Below, in pieces: positions 43,817-60,108 of a stretch of DNA of 64,000 bases. Positions within the stretch are counted from its first letter, which is position 1. Each line of letters begins with the position of its first letter. The position numbers and the translations under genes were made by a program. The stretch lies in assembly GCA_009015555.1 (NCBI GenBank), contig GCA_009015555.1_3613.1. One strand, written 5' to 3'. This stretch comes from a phage. Under the pieces are notes generated by a model that saw only the letters and a program-made list of their open reading frames with translations, was not told the origin of the DNA and did no database searches.

Positions 43817-44109
43817 GATGCCTCCGGAAACGAATAAAAGGTTCTCACAACCACAATCTCAAGGTTAATACCCGGATTGTCTCTTGTCAAGGCTTCTTTT
43901 TTCCTTTCTGCATTTTTCAGTTTGGAGAAAACTTGGAACTTCTTGTTGATGACCGGAAGGGTGTCAGACCCAACCATCTTTATCGCAAAGTACACATCTC
44001 CGCCACGCAACCCTTGGCCCAGCTTATGCTGGAACCAGGCGTTGAACTCATCAGGCGTGGTGTCAATACCTGCGAATCTTTTCAGCCACAGCCTCAGCTT
44101 ATTCATCAT
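43813..44109 (-). CDS. hypothetical basic protein
   Basis: Start at internal ATG. Confidence 0.45.
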   Translation of the reverse strand: MMNKLRLWLKRFAGIDTTPDEFNAWFQHKLGQGLRGGDVYFAIKMVGSDTLPVINKKFQVFSKLKNAERKKEALTRDNPGINLEIVVVRTFYSFPEAS

Positions 44110-44626
44110 AGTCCCCTTTCGCATAACGTGGGCCACGAAGTTCAAGGCCCGTCTTATCCAGTGAATGTGGGGATATCATGCCATTACTGTTCCAGAACTT
44201 CAAGTCTTTTTTCACCTGCTCCGCCTTTCGGTCCACGAAAGCCGCAACGATGTCGGGGTTTGTCTTCGGCATTGCCCGGTACACAGCACTGCGGGCATTT
44301 TCAAACTGGTCCTCGATAATCTTCAACTGATCCATCATTTCCAGTTCGTCCATTGCCTCTTTACACACGCAGCAATGACCTTTGGAGAAATACTCCCGGC
44401 TATCCTTGAAGTGGTCCCAACGCTCACCTTGGATAGGGAGGGCCATACGCCCACAGTAAGCACAGACGTGGGTAGATTTGTCAGACAGGACGGTGGTAGG
44501 GCGGATGCCTTCCTTTGTACTGTTCCAGCCGTAATGGTGACCTTCCCTGCCATACATATAAGAGAAGAATTTATAGGCGCGTTCATCGACGTGCTCTTCG
44601 TCACGATTTTTGGTACGTTCGAACAT
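44099..44626 (-). CDS. Cys-rich hypothetical protein (first gene of the leftward block)
   Basis: AAGAGGAA RBS; promoter upstream; CAYCG ... HCCVCK. Confidence 0.55.
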   Translation of the reverse strand: MFERTKNRDEEHVDERAYKFFSYMYGREGHHYGWNSTKEGIRPTTVLSDKSTHVCAYCGRMALPIQGERWDHFKDSREYFSKGHCCVCKEAMDELEMMDQLKIIEDQFENARSAVYRAMPKTNPDIVAAFVDRKAEQVKKDLKFWNSNGMISPHSLDKTGLELRGPRYAKGDYDE

Positions 44627-44658
44627 ATTTTCGTTCCTCTTTTGTGTTTGATGGTGGG

Positions 44659-44687
44659 ACTATACCGAGTCTCGATCGGGAAATCAA
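44659..44687 (-). promoter_or_regulatory. sigma70-type promoter heading the leftward block
   Basis: Minus strand TTGATT-17-TATAGT; spacer contains CGATCGAGAC, the motif repeated at 55.5-55.7 kb. Confidence 0.6.
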
Positions 44688-44750
44688 CCCTTGCATCGTG
44701 TTTTTGTTCATGGTACTTTATTGTTCACTCAACATGAACAGGAGATTACT

Positions 44751-45314
44751 ATGAACAAAGTATTATCCCCGGCAGAGCAGCTTGCCATGATGATTAAGTT
44801 GGCTGCAACACACCACATGCAACAGTTTGATAAGGGCGGGCGTCCTTATGTTCTGCACGTCCTGAAGGTAATGCACTACCTTAAGGTAAAGGATGACGAC
44901 GAACTGAACTGTATTGCCGTGGGCCACGACATCGTTGAAGATACCCCGGTACAACCCTGCGATTTGGAACGGCTGGGTATGTCCAACAGGGTTATCTCTG
45001 GGATCGCTCGGCTGACCAAGGTAGAAGGTCAGACCCACGGCGAATACCTCAAAGGTGTCCTGGAGAGTTATGATGCCTGCCGTGTTAAGCTGGCAGACCT
45101 GCGTCACAACACCGATATCCGCCGTCTGAAAGGACTGCGTAAAAAGGACTTGCAGCGAATCCAGAAATATCATAAAATGCACATGCAGATTAAAGACATG
45201 ATCGCATGGTACGAAAACAACCATTTGAGCATGTTCTCTTTCCCGGGCGATTATTTTTCTGCCCGTGATGAGCAGGTGAAATCAATCATGGAGAAAGAAT
45301 ACGATGCGGATTAA
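44751..45314 (+). CDS. HD-domain phosphohydrolase, (p)ppGpp-hydrolase (SpoT/RelA HD)-like
   Basis: AGGAG RBS. H..H ... GHDIVEDT, resembling the HD motif of alarmone hydrolases. Confidence 0.65.
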   Translation: MNKVLSPAEQLAMMIKLAATHHMQQFDKGGRPYVLHVLKVMHYLKVKDDDELNCIAVGHDIVEDTPVQPCDLERLGMSNRVISGIARLTKVEGQTHGEYLKGVLESYDACRVKLADLRHNTDIRRLKGLRKKDLQRIQKYHKMHMQIKDMIAWYENNHLSMFSFPGDYFSARDEQVKSIMEKEYDAD

Positions 45315-45465
45315 GGTTTTAGATGCCCCTCTGGGGCATAAATTCGACCCGGACAAGCACTATCTGGTTTACGGGACACACGGCTATGCCTTCGTTTTTG
45401 ATGACGACTGTGAATCTTGCTTTTTGAGCGATATGGAATGGGAGGAAGTGACAAGTGAAAGTTGA
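45304..45465 (+). CDS. small hypothetical protein (53 aa)
   Basis: Hand-translated MRIKVLDAPLGHKFDPDKHY..; overlaps both neighbours. Confidence 0.3.
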   Translation: MRIKVLDAPLGHKFDPDKHYLVYGTHGYAFVFDDDCESCFLSDMEWEEVTSES

Positions 45466-45661
45466 AATCATTGAGCGCGGTACTGAGGTGATCTTGGTAA
45501 GCCGAGATACTGCGGTCAACCCGGGGTTTATCGTCCCCCGCAAAAACGAGCGAATCTGCGCCCACGGAGATAACTATTTTGTCCGTGAGGTTAACCATTA
45601 CTACTACCGTGCCATCCCTGGTGAAGATGATTTCATTGAGATTTTGGTGGAGGCAGAATGA
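45455..45661 (+). CDS. hypothetical protein
   Basis: GTG start 7 nt after GGAGGAAG. Confidence 0.45.
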   Translation: MKVEIIERGTEVILVSRDTAVNPGFIVPRKNERICAHGDNYFVREVNHYYYRAIPGEDDFIEILVEAE

Positions 45662-46188
45662 AAAAGACACTAAGCATTAAACCTGTTATCTCCACATACC
45701 TCGGTTGTCCTGACCGATACGGGAGTGCCGAGGTTATGGACGATGGTGATTGGTTGGACCTCGAAGAGGACAAGCAATACCCTATCACTCGTTTGGGTTG
45801 CCTGATCAACGGCAAAGAGCCGGAGGAGACGTACTGCATGTACTACTTCCTCCAAGCAATGAAGCCCGGCTATAAGGGCGATTATCAGGACGGTTGGACG
45901 TGGAACACGTTCTTTACCTGTTCCTGCGGTCACGGCGGTTGCGCCGGGTATCACGAGAACGTCCGTATCCACCGTAAAAAGGCTACCGTCCGGGTCATGG
46001 GTAAGGTATCCGACGGTTATAAAAACGGCGTGGTGGGCACTGGGGAGGCCGTGGTGTACTTCGATAAGAAGGAGTGGGATGCGGTCCGTGATTACTACAT
46101 GGACCTGTTCCGCAAGAACCCGGATGGCATCTTCCAGGATAACGAAATCTTCTTTACCGGGCGTTACGGCCTGAAAGCATGGGGTTGA
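45658..46188 (+). CDS. hypothetical Cys/His-rich protein
   Basis: 176 aa; CSCGHGGCAGYH. Confidence 0.55.
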   Translation: MKKTLSIKPVISTYLGCPDRYGSAEVMDDGDWLDLEEDKQYPITRLGCLINGKEPEETYCMYYFLQAMKPGYKGDYQDGWTWNTFFTCSCGHGGCAGYHENVRIHRKKATVRVMGKVSDGYKNGVVGTGEAVVYFDKKEWDAVRDYYMDLFRKNPDGIFQDNEIFFTGRYGLKAWG

Positions 46189-51262: not shown

Positions 51263-51395
51263 GTGGCGGTTCTGGGAGCATACCCTTGTCTTTACCGGGT
51301 GGTTGTTCGGTTACGGGCATGATGCCTATTACGGCGTGAAAAATAGCCGCAATAAAGCATACTTTGCCTATGCTTTCTACAAGGAACGGGTATGA
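51237..51395 (+). CDS. small aromatic-rich protein
   Basis: GTG start 5 nt after AAGGAGAAG. Confidence 0.4.
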   Translation: MKKTYLKYKWRFWEHTLVFTGWLFGYGHDAYYGVKNSRNKAYFAYAFYKERV

Positions 51396-51634
51396 ACCTT
51401 GGGAAAAACCAAATCGGGGTCCTGAAGTGTCTCAGCGACGGTCGTTACGGCTATATCGCCTTCCCCTGGGGCTGTGGGTGGGTGTGGAACACACGCCAGG
51501 GAACCATCAAGATCCTTGAGACCCTTGTCAAAAAGGGTCTGGTGGAGAAAGGGACATATACAACCGAAGAGGGTAAAACTTACCCTCAATATACCATCTC
51601 CCGCACCGGGAAAGTGTATATTCTCGGCAGATAA
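51392..51634 (+). CDS. hypothetical protein
   Basis: 80 aa; ATGA overlap. Confidence 0.5.
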   Translation: MNLGKNQIGVLKCLSDGRYGYIAFPWGCGWVWNTRQGTIKILETLVKKGLVEKGTYTTEEGKTYPQYTISRTGKVYILGR

Positions 51635-54424: not shown

Positions 54425-55264
54425 ATGTCCTCATTTGATGCAGCTTTTCTACACGGTGTCGCTGATTATTCCAAGGGCACCAGTCCAACGCCCGAGATCC
54501 CCGATTGGAAAAATTTACAGCGGCGGCTGTCTGATGTCCAAGATACTTTGCTGAAGGAATGGCAGAGCAATGATTCTGTAGCTTCCGACATCAAAGACAT
54601 AGCCAGTGATTTTGACTTTGATTCTTCTCTTGAGGATTTTGTTTACAGGGCCAACGAAAAGATAGATACTTTGCACCGCGCTGTGCGTGATTCGTGTTAC
54701 GATCTGAAGATGAACTGGGACCCGGATGGAATGACCCGTGACCAGATGGTGACCTTTGTCGAAAACTTGAAGGACCAACTTGAAGAGTACCTACCACAAT
54801 CCCACATAATGAAAGATGTGGTTATGGGTTGGTACGGGTACAATGTGGCCCGGTTTGTTCAGGATTACCATGCACTGGGTCAAGCCTGGTTGTCATATAC
54901 CCACGATGATACGTACATGGGGGATCTGGAAGATTCCAAACTTGGAGACTTGACCATCAAGGCGTGTTCGAACGGCATCCTCCGATTATCCACCCAGTGG
55001 GTGCCAGGCTACCTGTACTTTACCAGTGATAATAAGATTATCCTTGGGGGTGAGAAGCACAGTCTTGCCATGAAAGTAGAAGAGTTCAGGACTTTCTTTG
55101 ATGACTGGAAGCGACCAACGGAAGAAGAGATTGCCCTGTTTGATGTCCTCAACCCTGGGGCCAACTGGTCTGTGTTCAGATACTTGAGGGATTACGAAGG
55201 GAAGAACTACATCTCGAACGTGAAACCGATCACATTGCAGGTGTCGGTTAGCACCAAGCTGTGA
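54425..55264 (+). CDS. hypothetical protein (279 aa), last gene before the repeat region
   Basis: Long ORF; no motif recognised. Confidence 0.6.
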   Translation: MSSFDAAFLHGVADYSKGTSPTPEIPDWKNLQRRLSDVQDTLLKEWQSNDSVASDIKDIASDFDFDSSLEDFVYRANEKIDTLHRAVRDSCYDLKMNWDPDGMTRDQMVTFVENLKDQLEEYLPQSHIMKDVVMGWYGYNVARFVQDYHALGQAWLSYTHDDTYMGDLEDSKLGDLTIKACSNGILRLSTQWVPGYLYFTSDNKIILGGEKHSLAMKVEEFRTFFDDWKRPTEEEIALFDVLNPGANWSVFRYLRDYEGKNYISNVKPITLQVSVSTKL

Positions 55265-55440
55265 TATTTGTGGGCCAAGGACGGCTCAGTTTTCAGATCG
55301 GATTTCGATTTGATATTTGCCTGTGATATTTGCGCCGATATTTGAAATCAGATTTCAATTCGAAATTCAATTTGAGATTTTATTTGAGATGGCCCGCCGG
55401 GCCGGGACTCAGATCAGATTCCTTTTTCAGATTTACTCAA
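55263..55440. repeat. cluster of short A/T-rich direct repeats (GATATTTG / GATTTCGA / ATTTGAGAT)
   Basis: gtGATATTTGtg ... GATTTCGATTTGATATTTGcctgtGATATTTGcgccGATATTTGaaatcaGATTTCAATTCGAAATTCAATTTGAGATTTTATTTGAGAT. Confidence 0.7.
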
Positions 55441-55564
55441 CAATGTACCAGCACACCCGGCCCCGGTCAAGGGCTAATGTACCATAAATGTTACATTAAG
55501 GGGCTTATGCACCACTAACGGCACATATACGTTACAATACGGGAGTTATCTCTGGTCAAAAAAT

Positions 55565-55735
55565 TTGAGGGTCTCGATCGGTTTTTCGTTTTGCCGATCG
55601 TATTCTCTGCCCGCCGGGCCGGACTGGGGTCTCGGTACAGAAAGCAGGGTCTCGATCGAAAACTCAATTTCGAGATCGTATTCTCGATACAGGTACAGGT
55701 CTCCGCCCGGGGTCTCGATCGAGATTTCATTTTCA
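55565..55735. repeat. three ~45-bp direct repeats GGGTCTCGATCG-N-CGTATTCTC
   Basis: GGGTCTCGATCG at 55569, 55647 and 55710, each followed 14-18 nt later by CGTATTCTC; GCCCGCCGGGCCGG blocks in between. Confidence 0.75.
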
Positions 55736-55769
55736 AAAACGTATTCTCAAAATCTATACAGAGGTGAAA

Positions 55770-55895
55770 ATCGAAATGAGAATTTTTATCATTCACGTTA
55801 GGCCCGAGGCGAAATGAGAATCGTTCTCATTTGCAAATTGAAATGATAATTATTCGCATTTACGTAGTTGAATGAGAATCATTCTCATCTCCAGA
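55770..55895. repeat. four palindromic repeats GAAATGAGAAT-n-ATTCTCATTT
   Basis: Four copies, two of them perfect palindromes (AAATGAGAA-TCG-TTCTCATTT; ATGAGAAT-C-ATTCTCAT). Confidence 0.75.
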
Positions 55896-56164
55896 ATAGC
55901 GGGCACCCCCGGTGATTGTCTCCGGGTCATTTCTCCCCGCTATGTGTATAATATAGCCCAACCCCGGCCCGGTTGCAAGCGTCTTTACAGTTCTTTACAA
56001 AACTATTTTGGACGAACTACCGGCGATCCACCTTCCGACCTGGCCCCGGTGCCCGGTACGTTAGCCCCGCCTTTTCGCCGTGGGGTGGCGTCTCCTCTCC
56101 TGTATGTGTACATTATGGACTAGCCCCGCCGGGCCGTCAATACCAAAACGAAAATAAATTTTTC

Positions 56165-56193
56165 TTGACCTGCCAGGCAAGCCGGGCCACAAT
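56165..56193 (+). promoter_or_regulatory. sigma70-type promoter
   Basis: TTGACC-17-CACAAT ahead of ORF 56223. Confidence 0.55.
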
Positions 56194-56222
56194 GCAGGCA
56201 CACCAACAAAGGAGATCGACCG

Positions 56223-56555
56223 ATGCAACAGACGAAATATTTTATTGAAGGTAACGCCGCCGCCCACGCCGGGCAGATCCGCGCCTGCCGCTACAATAAA
56301 GAAGAGAACCGCCGCGAATGGTTCGCCGGGTTCGATAGTGTGGATCGTGGTTTCGCCGTGTTTAAGATCCTGCCTGGTCCCGGCGCTGTTAAGCTGGCGG
56401 ACCTGGACCCGGTTTATATTGGTGGCGTCAAGCAATGCCAGGATCGCGCCGTCACACTGCAACAGGCGGACCGCGCCGGGCAATATGTGATCTATGATAT
56501 GACAACGGGCAAGCCGTACCAGGAAAGCACAAAATTAAATTACAAAAAGATTTAA
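56223..56555 (+). CDS. small early-type protein (110 aa)
   Basis: AAGGAG RBS; own promoter; no homolog recognised. Confidence 0.6.
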   Translation: MQQTKYFIEGNAAAHAGQIRACRYNKEENRREWFAGFDSVDRGFAVFKILPGPGAVKLADLDPVYIGGVKQCQDRAVTLQQADRAGQYVIYDMTTGKPYQESTKLNYKKI

Positions 56556-59659: not shown

Positions 59660-59971
59660 ATGACAATCGTAACTCTGATTTGTTTAGCACTGGCGGCGCT
59701 TTATTGCGTCGCCACTCACAAAGCCGCACTATGGCGAAAGGGTCAAAAAATGTACGGTTATTTTGAATACGAGTACAAAGGGGAGAAGGGATCAAGCCGG
59801 GACTATGGCGCAATGTGTGAGATCGATATGGTTGGCGCTATGAACTACCGCCAGGAGTTGGGCGCGGTGATCACTTATGAGGTTTACGACTCCTCAGAAG
59901 AGAAGATCGGAGAAATAATCGATCAACGTTACTACATGGAACAACAGCAAAACAAACGCCGGAGAAGATGA
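59660..59971 (+). CDS. hypothetical protein with N-terminal hydrophobic segment (start uncertain)
   Basis: Track ORF; alternative start at MYGYFEYEY; no clear promoter. Confidence 0.4.
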   Translation: MTIVTLICLALAALYCVATHKAALWRKGQKMYGYFEYEYKGEKGSSRDYGAMCEIDMVGAMNYRQELGAVITYEVYDSSEEKIGEIIDQRYYMEQQQNKRRRR

Positions 59972-59973
59972 GA

Positions 59974-60108
59974 ATGATTCACACTAACATTAACCGCGAT
60001 AAACAACCGCGCCGCGCCCGTCTCTCATACGCTGAAGCAGGCGAGCGCCTGCAACGTGAGAAGGCCAACAAACAACAGCGCCGTAAAACGCGCTATAACT
60101 GGGAGTAA
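59974..60108 (+). CDS. tiny Arg/Lys-rich protein (44 aa)
   Basis: Hand-translated MIHTNINRDKQPRRARLSYAEAGERLQREKANKQQRRKTRYNWE; GGAGAAGATGAGA before the ATG. Confidence 0.35.
   Translation: MIHTNINRDKQPRRARLSYAEAGERLQREKANKQQRRKTRYNWE

Follow-up and report, generated by a model that had tools for sequence, protein, structure and literature searches.

In iteron systems (F plasmid RepE, R6K pi, pSC101 RepA, and P1 RepA with incC/incA), one initiator reads both an array of repeats and an operator at the rep promoter. The bioO operator of E. coli, an imperfect palindrome of about 40 bp bound by BirA, lies across two divergent promoters, and the p4 sites of phage phi29 are bipartite, carry an A/T-rich bendable spacer and occur in several copies, with a phage protein switching divergent promoters. 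Here we describe an arrangement that shares features with each of these: a bipartite unit of 40 bp that is present four times in a 64,000-nucleotide stretch of phage DNA (GenBank assembly GCA_009015555.1, contig GCA_009015555.1_3613.1; the window), three times as an array in a non-coding region near 55.5 kb and once across a pair of divergent promoters near 44.7 kb. The window belongs to a CR3-like Certrevirus (Vequintavirinae) phage; positions 44000-46000 are 92% identical to Cronobacter phage CR3, positions 55200-56100 are 99.8% identical, and window position 44669 corresponds to CR3 69047.

Gene regulation and replication control are essentially unstudied in the rV5-like phages, which are widely used as therapy or biocontrol candidates. 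Their origin of replication could not be defined in the rV5 study (PMC3606486), and the promoters described so far are all of a generic sigma70-like kind, 13-21 per genome in the Certreviruses CB7, CR3, CR8, and CR9, with a sigma70-like early promoter consensus of AAAA-N3-TGTTGAC-N19-TATAAT (PMC7344957). The CB7 paper mentions neither the unit nor the array (PMC7344957), and our search of the literature returned no description of the unit, the array, or the Fur-like boxes that adjoin it. The four-site element connects a conserved non-coding hub with the promoters of a replication and nucleotide-metabolism block.

A 40-bp unit present at two loci

The 10-mer GTCTCGATCG occurs exactly four times in the window, always on the + strand (44669-44678, 55571-55580, 55649-55658, and 55712-55721), where 0.17 copies are expected from shuffles of the window and none of 100 shuffles reached four. 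The complete CR3 genome (149,273 bp) carries it at the four homologous places only, against 0.29 expected, a genome-wide count above chance. A sequence-only reading of this DNA had placed the motif three times in the repeats and once at the promoter; the four copies hold, but its coordinates are about 2 bases off, as 55569, 55647, and 55710 are the starts of the longer GGGTCTCGATCG heads, and 44667-44677 is off by 2 at the start and by 1 at the end. By itself, the 10-mer says little, since the three copies at 55.5 kb are the heads of one 40-bp direct repeat (family D1) and represent one event rather than independent matches; once they are counted so, one extra match would arise by chance with a probability of about 0.15-0.3.

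The match at the fourth site is significant because it extends over the whole 40-bp unit. The unit consensus is GGGTCTCGATCG, a 16-bp spacer of phased A/T tracts (N16), and (G)ATCGTATTCTC, and the head core CTCGATC and the tail core CGTATT have 19 bp between them, roughly two helical turns. The promoter copy of the window reads GAGTCTCGATCG-GGAAATCAACCCTTGC-ATCGTGTTTTTG, in the same orientation as the array. That of KaOmega, GGGTCTCGATCGAGAAATCAATACTTGAATCGTATTTTTG, is identical to array unit 2 at 30/40 positions (75%), which equals the identity of array units 2 and 3 to the reference unit 1.

For comparison, we aligned 13 genomes (the window, CR3, PBES02, CR8, CR9, phiTE, CB7, DU_PP_I, P7_Pc, POP15, KaOmega, F1M1E, and PcCB7V), using the homologous 14-20 kb of each relative; the complete genomes of CR3 and of GAP31 (147,940 bp) were searched as well. 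We trained a position weight matrix on array units alone (25 distinct ones across the 13 genomes), with no promoter copies. In both CR3 and the window, the promoter site was the best match of this array-trained matrix beyond the array itself (scores of 14.0 and 15.1, respectively), and with the shared 12-mer excluded, positions 13-40 of the site still fell in the top 9e-4 (window), 2e-4 (CR3), and 2e-5 (KaOmega) of genome positions. Among 300 simulated random genomes of 149 kb, the best match reached 14.0 in 0.7% and 15.1 in 0.3%, while the scores of the promoter sites in PBES02, CR9, phiTE, and KaOmega (22.6-35.6) were reached by none (0/300). The whole GAP31 genome served as a negative control; its best match outside the array scored -1.1, and it has no fourth copy. 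Taken together, these results indicate that the fourth copy is genuine and that its recurrence is not due to chance.

The fourth copy lies in an intergenic region (44627-44750) between a leftward gene (44626-44099; start at 44626, preceded by AAGAGGAA) and a gene encoding an HD-phosphohydrolase (44751-45314), upstream of which is a putative rightward promoter. The predicted leftward promoter, TTGATT-17-TATAGT, has 9/12 consensus matches in a consensus scan, and its spacing and the gene on the same strand mark it as sigma70 type. As the sequence-only reading had proposed, sequence and scan place GTCTCGATCG inside its 17-bp spacer. The tie to this promoter is only half of the arrangement, however, as the unit spans two divergent promoters: the head core is in the leftward spacer, the tail is in the rightward spacer, and both −35 hexamers, 3 bp apart, are in between. 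The unit thus overlaps the leftward spacer and −35 (44665-44687) together with the rightward −35 and part of its spacer (44691-44706), so that one element covers parts of the core (−35 to −10) regions of both predicted promoters.

The leftward gene is the first of a block of about 35 kb that includes a helicase, a primase/helicase, and a DNA polymerase (CR3 annotation). The promoter at 44687 had been called the master promoter of this block, a description that we do not retain: it is the first promoter of the block and a rather weak one, the consensus scan finds many further sigma70-like promoters on the block's own strand, and 13-21 such promoters have been reported per genome (PMC7344957).

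Both leftward hexamers are conserved in the 13-genome alignment, and 12/13 genomes share an unchanged CTCGATC, the two −35 boxes, and most of the tail; head core and tail lie within promoter spacers, where sigma70 imposes no constraint. By comparison, the spacer of an orthologous promoter at 56165-56193 varies among the same phages. The intergenic cassette is kept even where its flanks differ, on the left in CR9, KaOmega, and F1M1E and on the right in phiTE, CB7, PcCB7V, and DU_PP_I. The exception is P7_Pc, in which the left half of the region, including the unit head, is replaced together with the gene to the left; this phage is a natural promoter-copy deletion. It has another first leftward gene and another leftward promoter (segment coordinates 2592-2707), and its array is 99% identical to that of the window.

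Beyond Certrevirus, the promoter copy was not found; it is absent from GAP31, the sole other genome scanned in full. Since GAP31 has the triple array without a fourth copy, the array appears to be the older element and the promoter copy a later acquisition. The coordinates of the features are collected in Table 1.

Table 1. Units, promoters, and associated features in the window, and the repeats of distant lineages.
Feature	Position	Strand	Details
Leftward sigma70-like promoter (predicted)	44659-44687	-	−35 TTGATT 44687-44682, 17-bp spacer, −10 TATAGT 44664-44659
Fourth (promoter) unit copy	44667-44706	+	head core CTCGATC 44671-44677; tail core CGTGTT 44697-44702
Rightward sigma70-like promoter (putative)	44691-44719	+	−35 TTGCAT 44691-44696, 17-bp spacer, TGg, −10 TACTTT 44714-44719
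80-aa PadR/MarR-like winged-helix protein (probable)	51392-51634	+	only DNA-binding candidate found in the window
Non-coding control region, 958 bp	55265-56222		between a 279-aa gene (54425-55264) and a 110-aa gene (56223-56555)
Array unit 1	55569-55608	+	GGGTCTCGATCGGTTTTTCGTTTTGCCGATCGTATTCTCT; family D1, conserved across 13 genomes
Partial head	55627-55641	+	GGGTCTCGGTACAG; between units 1 and 2; family D6, conserved in the alignment
Array unit 2	55647-55686	+	GGGTCTCGATCGAAAACTCAATTTCGAGATCGTATTCTCG; family D1, conserved across 13 genomes
Second partial head	55698-55708	+	GGTCTCCGCCC
Array unit 3	55710-55749	+	GGGTCTCGATCGAGATTTCATTTTCAAAAACGTATTCTCA; family D1, conserved across 13 genomes
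rV5 repeat			ACTCGATCT...GGATTTTCT
Hena1 repeat			ACTTGAGRGGTTTTTCAAA...TGGATTTTC
arall repeat			TTATTTAAAGTTTTT...AAAATGAAAAGTTCAA

A second operator-like motif lies next to the promoter copy at 44707-44740 and consists of TGTTCATG (44707), TGTTCAC (44723), and an inverted CATGAACA (44733). This motif extends over the rightward −10 and the 5' leader, and all genomes but CR9 (12/13) keep it.

The array and its non-coding region

The array is part of a non-coding region of 958 bp, for which CR3, CR8, and PBES02 have no annotated genes and which adjoins, on the left, a dense run of strong early promoters beginning at about 56.1 kb. The units start 78 and 63 bp apart; they are thus irregularly spaced and not tandem, with invariant heads and tails. 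Unit 3 is also about 89% identical in Mydovirus phages (such as KB57 and Raoultella phage Ro1) and in other Klebsiella and Escherichia phages. In addition to the units, the region contains TGATATTTG repeats, A/T-phased GATTTC-type repeats, 24-bp palindromes, four palindromes resembling Fur boxes, two −10-like elements, and a conserved segment of about 125 nt.

The order of these elements is shared with Mydovirus KB57 and Seunavirus GAP31, where the units read GGGTTCTCGATCG...CGTATTT, and is found again in rV5, in Henunavirus Hena1, and in the Stephanstirmvirinae phAPEC8 and arall. The distant lineages have three bipartite repeats at a similar spacing and of other sequences, so that the arrays fall into sequence classes (TCTCGATCG...CGTATT; ACTCGATCT...GGATTTTCT; ACTTGAGRGG...TGGATTTTC; and TTATTTAAAGTTTTT...). 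The Fur-like boxes and the 125-nt segment are nearly constant across lineages whose repeats differ.

Positions 55200-56100 are 99.6-99.8% identical to CR3, CR8, and PBES02 (in DU_PP_I, the right 77% is 98.8% identical), compared with only about 92% identity to CR3 for coding DNA 11 kb from the array (44000-46000). Such identity indicates either very strong constraint or recent recombinational spread.

The Fur-box-like palindromes (AATGAGAATnnTTCTCATT) form a cluster of four copies at 55772-55892, spaced 38/29/29, with a further one at 59964-59988. The window has 32 matches of at least 13/19 to GATAATGATAATCATTATC, 11 of them within the 120 bp of this cluster, and one of the rV5 copies, GATAATGATAATCGTTCTC, matches at 17/19 positions as counted by hand. 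The cluster is conserved across genera and lies just upstream of a −10-like TATAAT; it may link early phage transcription to the iron status of the host. The 125-nt segment (55975-56105; …CTACCGGCGATCCACCTTCCGACC…GCCCCGCCTTTTCGCCGTGGGGTGGCG…) lies within a query, 55860-56110, that matched 355 phage records at 70-99% identity, Vequintavirinae and Stephanstirmvirinae being among the subfamilies. It could be a small RNA or a cis element. As an RNA, it has a consensus fold of two hairpins with compensatory change in 2 pairs only, which is insufficient to accept a structured RNA, and Rfam gave nothing credible in the window at the gathering threshold or in 55200-56300 at E <= 5.

Type III antitoxin repeats of the ToxI kind are tandem, head-to-tail repeats of about 36 nt that are transcribed as RNA. 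We rejected this identity (ToxI/pseudo-ToxI of phiTE) for the array, whose units are not tandem and have no Rfam match; the unit shows no resemblance by eye to the ToxI repeat, a comparison made without a sequence search.

Toward the left of the region, a 24-bp palindrome, TAATGTACCAT-AA-ATGTTACATTA, and a related element, TTATGCACC…GGCACATA, occupy 55476-55530. Both have ATGT…ACAT arms similar to those of PadR-type operators. The window also encodes a PadR-like protein (Table 1), to which a link is speculative. At the left edge (55259-55340), (T)GATATTTG is repeated 3-4 times and is kept in KB57, GAP31, and Hena1 (segment coordinates 2240-2275, 2180-2215, and 82-115, respectively). In phiTE (phiTE_079, segment 13340-13775) and CB7 (segment 13249-13671), the non-coding region carries an insertion with a minus-strand open reading frame, which is absent from the window and CR3. 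Its motif, …GWQGGTVHQVA..TGL…, recurs at the same position in an unannotated minus-strand open reading frame of phAPEC8 (segment about 1000-1150) and arall (segment about 900-1030), as read from the DNA. Elsewhere, no tRNA genes were found in the window, GATC is over-represented across the CR3 genome, with 940 sites where about 583 are expected, and this genome encodes several DNA methyltransferases.

A possible shared binding factor and its alternatives

A common binding factor is a plausible and the most economical reading of the four units, because the whole-unit match is not due to chance, the orientation is the same, and the unit is conserved at both loci in 12/13 Certrevirus genomes. Under this reading, a single DNA-binding protein with sequence specificity, most likely a phage product, would recognise all four units. 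Because head and tail occupy the leftward and the rightward spacer, respectively, and flank both −35 hexamers, a protein bound to the 44.7-kb unit would block RNA polymerase at both promoters at once, resulting in repression or a timed shut-off. The 19-bp separation of the cores and the phased A/T tracts of the spacers suggest a bent complex with both half-sites on one face. The array would be the primary, ancestral binding locus of the protein, and the promoter copy would have been recruited later in Certrevirus. That the repeats vary between lineages beside constant elements argues against a host factor and for a binder that is encoded by the phage and co-evolves with its sites. The restriction to four sites in 149 kb is also more in keeping with a dedicated regulator or initiator than with a class of promoters. 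The array itself could be an origin of replication, or else act on the early region as a regulatory hub or sink. From these sequence comparisons, we give this reading, in which a single phage-encoded protein occupies the four units and represses the two divergent promoters, a probability of roughly 55%.

Several observations weigh against this reading. At head positions 1-4, changes in the promoter copy are not mirrored in the array: the promoter copies of phiTE and POP15 both read GGTACTC, but their arrays read GGGTCTC and GTTCTC, respectively. Array units 1 and 2 are tail-less in phiTE and CB7, so head and tail may sometimes act independently. P7_Pc is viable although its promoter copy is lost, and GAP31 has the triple array without one, so the link between the loci is not common to all genera. 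The rightward promoter was read by eye and from conservation in the alignment; it has a weak −10 and was missed by the consensus scan. Our searches, moreover, did not identify a binder. The ten proteins that flank the two loci have no Pfam or informative PHROGs assignment and no recognised DNA-binding domain. The 175-aa product of the first leftward gene is highly conserved, has an invariant CxxC...CxC, and gave a confident structure model, for which no structural analogue was found. The only DNA-binding candidate in the window, the 80-aa protein of Table 1, is a weak one for this role: it is absent from phiTE, CB7, and P7_Pc, all of which keep the array, and from genera other than Certrevirus, and is therefore not the general array binder. 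The sequence-only reading had proposed one regulator for both loci; the shared and conserved whole unit speaks for this, but the regulator was not found and the link is seen only in Certrevirus.

The 80-aa protein is probably a PadR/MarR-type winged-helix DNA binder: Pfam PadR matched with E = 1.2e-3, which is below the cutoff for acceptance, its AlphaFold2 model has a mean confidence (pLDDT) of 71, and the top Foldseek matches of the model are PadR/MarR regulators with template modelling (TM) scores of 0.6-0.75. The gene is restricted to Certrevirus bar one partial match (63% coverage) in Yersinia phage JC221, and its homologues are 46-48% identical in CR9 and F1M1E and 91% identical in KaOmega. 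The 279-aa gene upstream of the array was also dropped as a source of the binder, its protein being acidic by inspection; it occupies the same position in GAP31 and KB57 and is fast-evolving and barely alignable (E 0.001-0.009). GAP31 encodes two small HTH_36-type winged-helix proteins annotated as 'replication initiation protein', with no detectable homologue in the window or CR3.

The array might instead be the phage origin, with the units as iterons and an initiator that autoregulates the helicase, primase/helicase, and polymerase block through the promoter copy, in the manner of RepE, pi, and RepA on iteron plasmids and P1. We regard this as unlikely, though several features are in its favour: three direct repeats in a long and highly conserved non-coding region, a further copy on the promoter that heads the replication block, repeat sequences that are lineage-specific as in iterons, and the fact that no origin has been defined for rV5-like phages (PMC3606486). 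The array had been called iteron-like, a resemblance that stands only in part, as the units are bipartite, 40 bp long, and irregularly spaced, there is no DnaA-box cluster, and AT-richness is only local. With up to one mismatch allowed, the only DnaA box in the array region is at 55943 and coincides with a −10-like element; the search for an AT-rich unwinding element found peaks of just 64-72% AT in 50-bp windows. The full unit copy overlaps two promoters, the first genes downstream of it differ between phages, and no initiator-like gene was found beside either locus in the window or downstream of the promoter copy. An intergenic region of about 2 kb has been reported to be insertion-free in Bas54, another member of the Vequintavirinae (10.1101/2025.11.20.689424); it separates oppositely transcribed genes and is probably a different locus from the array, and we did not use it as evidence.

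A wider proposal, which we hold to be rather unlikely, treats the region of about 1 kb as a control hub, possibly an origin, that appears in several groups of large enterobacterial myoviruses, namely Vequintavirinae and Stephanstirmvirinae. It would combine three bipartite sites whose sequence is specific to the lineage, read by a co-evolving phage initiator or regulator that is as yet unannotated, with a constant array of host Fur boxes and the segment of about 125 nt, and the same protein would control the divergent promoters of the replication block in Certrevirus. If so, early transcription or replication would be tied to a dedicated phage factor and to the iron status of the host.

It is quite doubtful that the units are instead read by a conserved protein of the Enterobacterales, such as a transcription factor not yet recognised or a protein of the Dam/SeqA type that reads GATC sites in pairs. 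All heads contain a GATC as part of CGATCG, a second GATC follows at a distance of 20 bp in units 1 and 2, boxes that are probably for host Fur adjoin the array, and the units are common to phages of Cronobacter, Pectobacterium, Klebsiella, and Enterobacter. However, all promoter copies lack the second GATC, as does unit 3 in most of these phages, and GATC is not enriched in the non-coding region (9 sites in 958 bp, compared with 6.5 per kb in the window). The repeats, moreover, differ between lineages with the same host (rV5 and phAPEC8 both infect E. coli), whereas the Fur-like boxes are constant. The unit is not known to match any host-factor consensus.

We consider it improbable that the cassette is a paralogous remnant, that is, a duplicated array unit that is conserved only as promoter elements, with no factor shared between the loci. 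The restriction of the promoter copy to Certrevirus and its absence from GAP31, which point to a later acquisition, would suit such an origin, as would the remodelling of its spacer into two −35 hexamers and a conservation that covers the whole intergenic region beyond the unit. Against it, the invariant CTCGATC and AT.GT.TT sit in promoter spacers, where sigma70 contacts cannot explain their conservation; the invariant promoter positions are the most information-rich positions of the array, and positions that are variable in the array also vary at the promoter. Finally, chance recurrence of the 10-mer is hardly credible, since the appreciable odds of one extra 10-mer match are overridden by a match that runs over 40 bp, by the retention of the promoter copy in 12/13 genomes, and by its array orientation, and it is effectively refuted by the tail and spacer scores and the random-genome simulations.

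With a shared factor as the preferred reading, the 40-bp unit offers a bait for the binder, and the two-locus layout is a built-in test of whether one factor serves both. Should the array be an origin or a master switch, it would be relevant to the engineering of rV5-like phages; should the units be the ordinary operator of a minor regulator, they would be of local interest only.

Comparison with described systems

The likeness to iteron systems lies in the clustered direct repeats of a non-coding region, a related copy at a promoter elsewhere, repeats that are lineage-specific, and the expectation that one protein reads both loci. Iterons are units of 17-22 bp in helical phase, unlike the units here, and in our case it is the whole unit rather than part of it that recurs at the promoter. 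An initiator gene, DnaA boxes, and a clear unwinding element were not found in the present case, and the genome is that of a virulent myovirus of 150 kb. The locus thus has the direct-repeat cluster of an iteron origin and lacks its repeat size and phasing and its DnaA and AT features.

As in bioO, a single element of about 40 bp covers parts of the core regions of two back-to-back promoters. The bioO operator has a known repressor and no remote array; here, no cognate repressor was found and three more copies lie 11 kb away. The symmetry is also weak, consisting of CGATCG ... (G)ATCG with centres 20 bp apart, and is perfect only in unit 1. The p4 sites of phi29 are likewise multiple and bipartite, with an A/T-rich spacer, and stand at divergent promoters; they differ in sequence and all lie in one short intergenic region, where early and late transcription diverge. 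A relative of p4 was not detected here, although no search was aimed at it.

Both 44.7-kb promoters are predicted to be of the host sigma70 type, like the Certrevirus early promoters. Their hexamers are weaker (TTGATT/TATAGT and TTGCAT/TACTTT) and they are without the TGTTGAC −35 motif, and only this pair carries the 40-bp unit.
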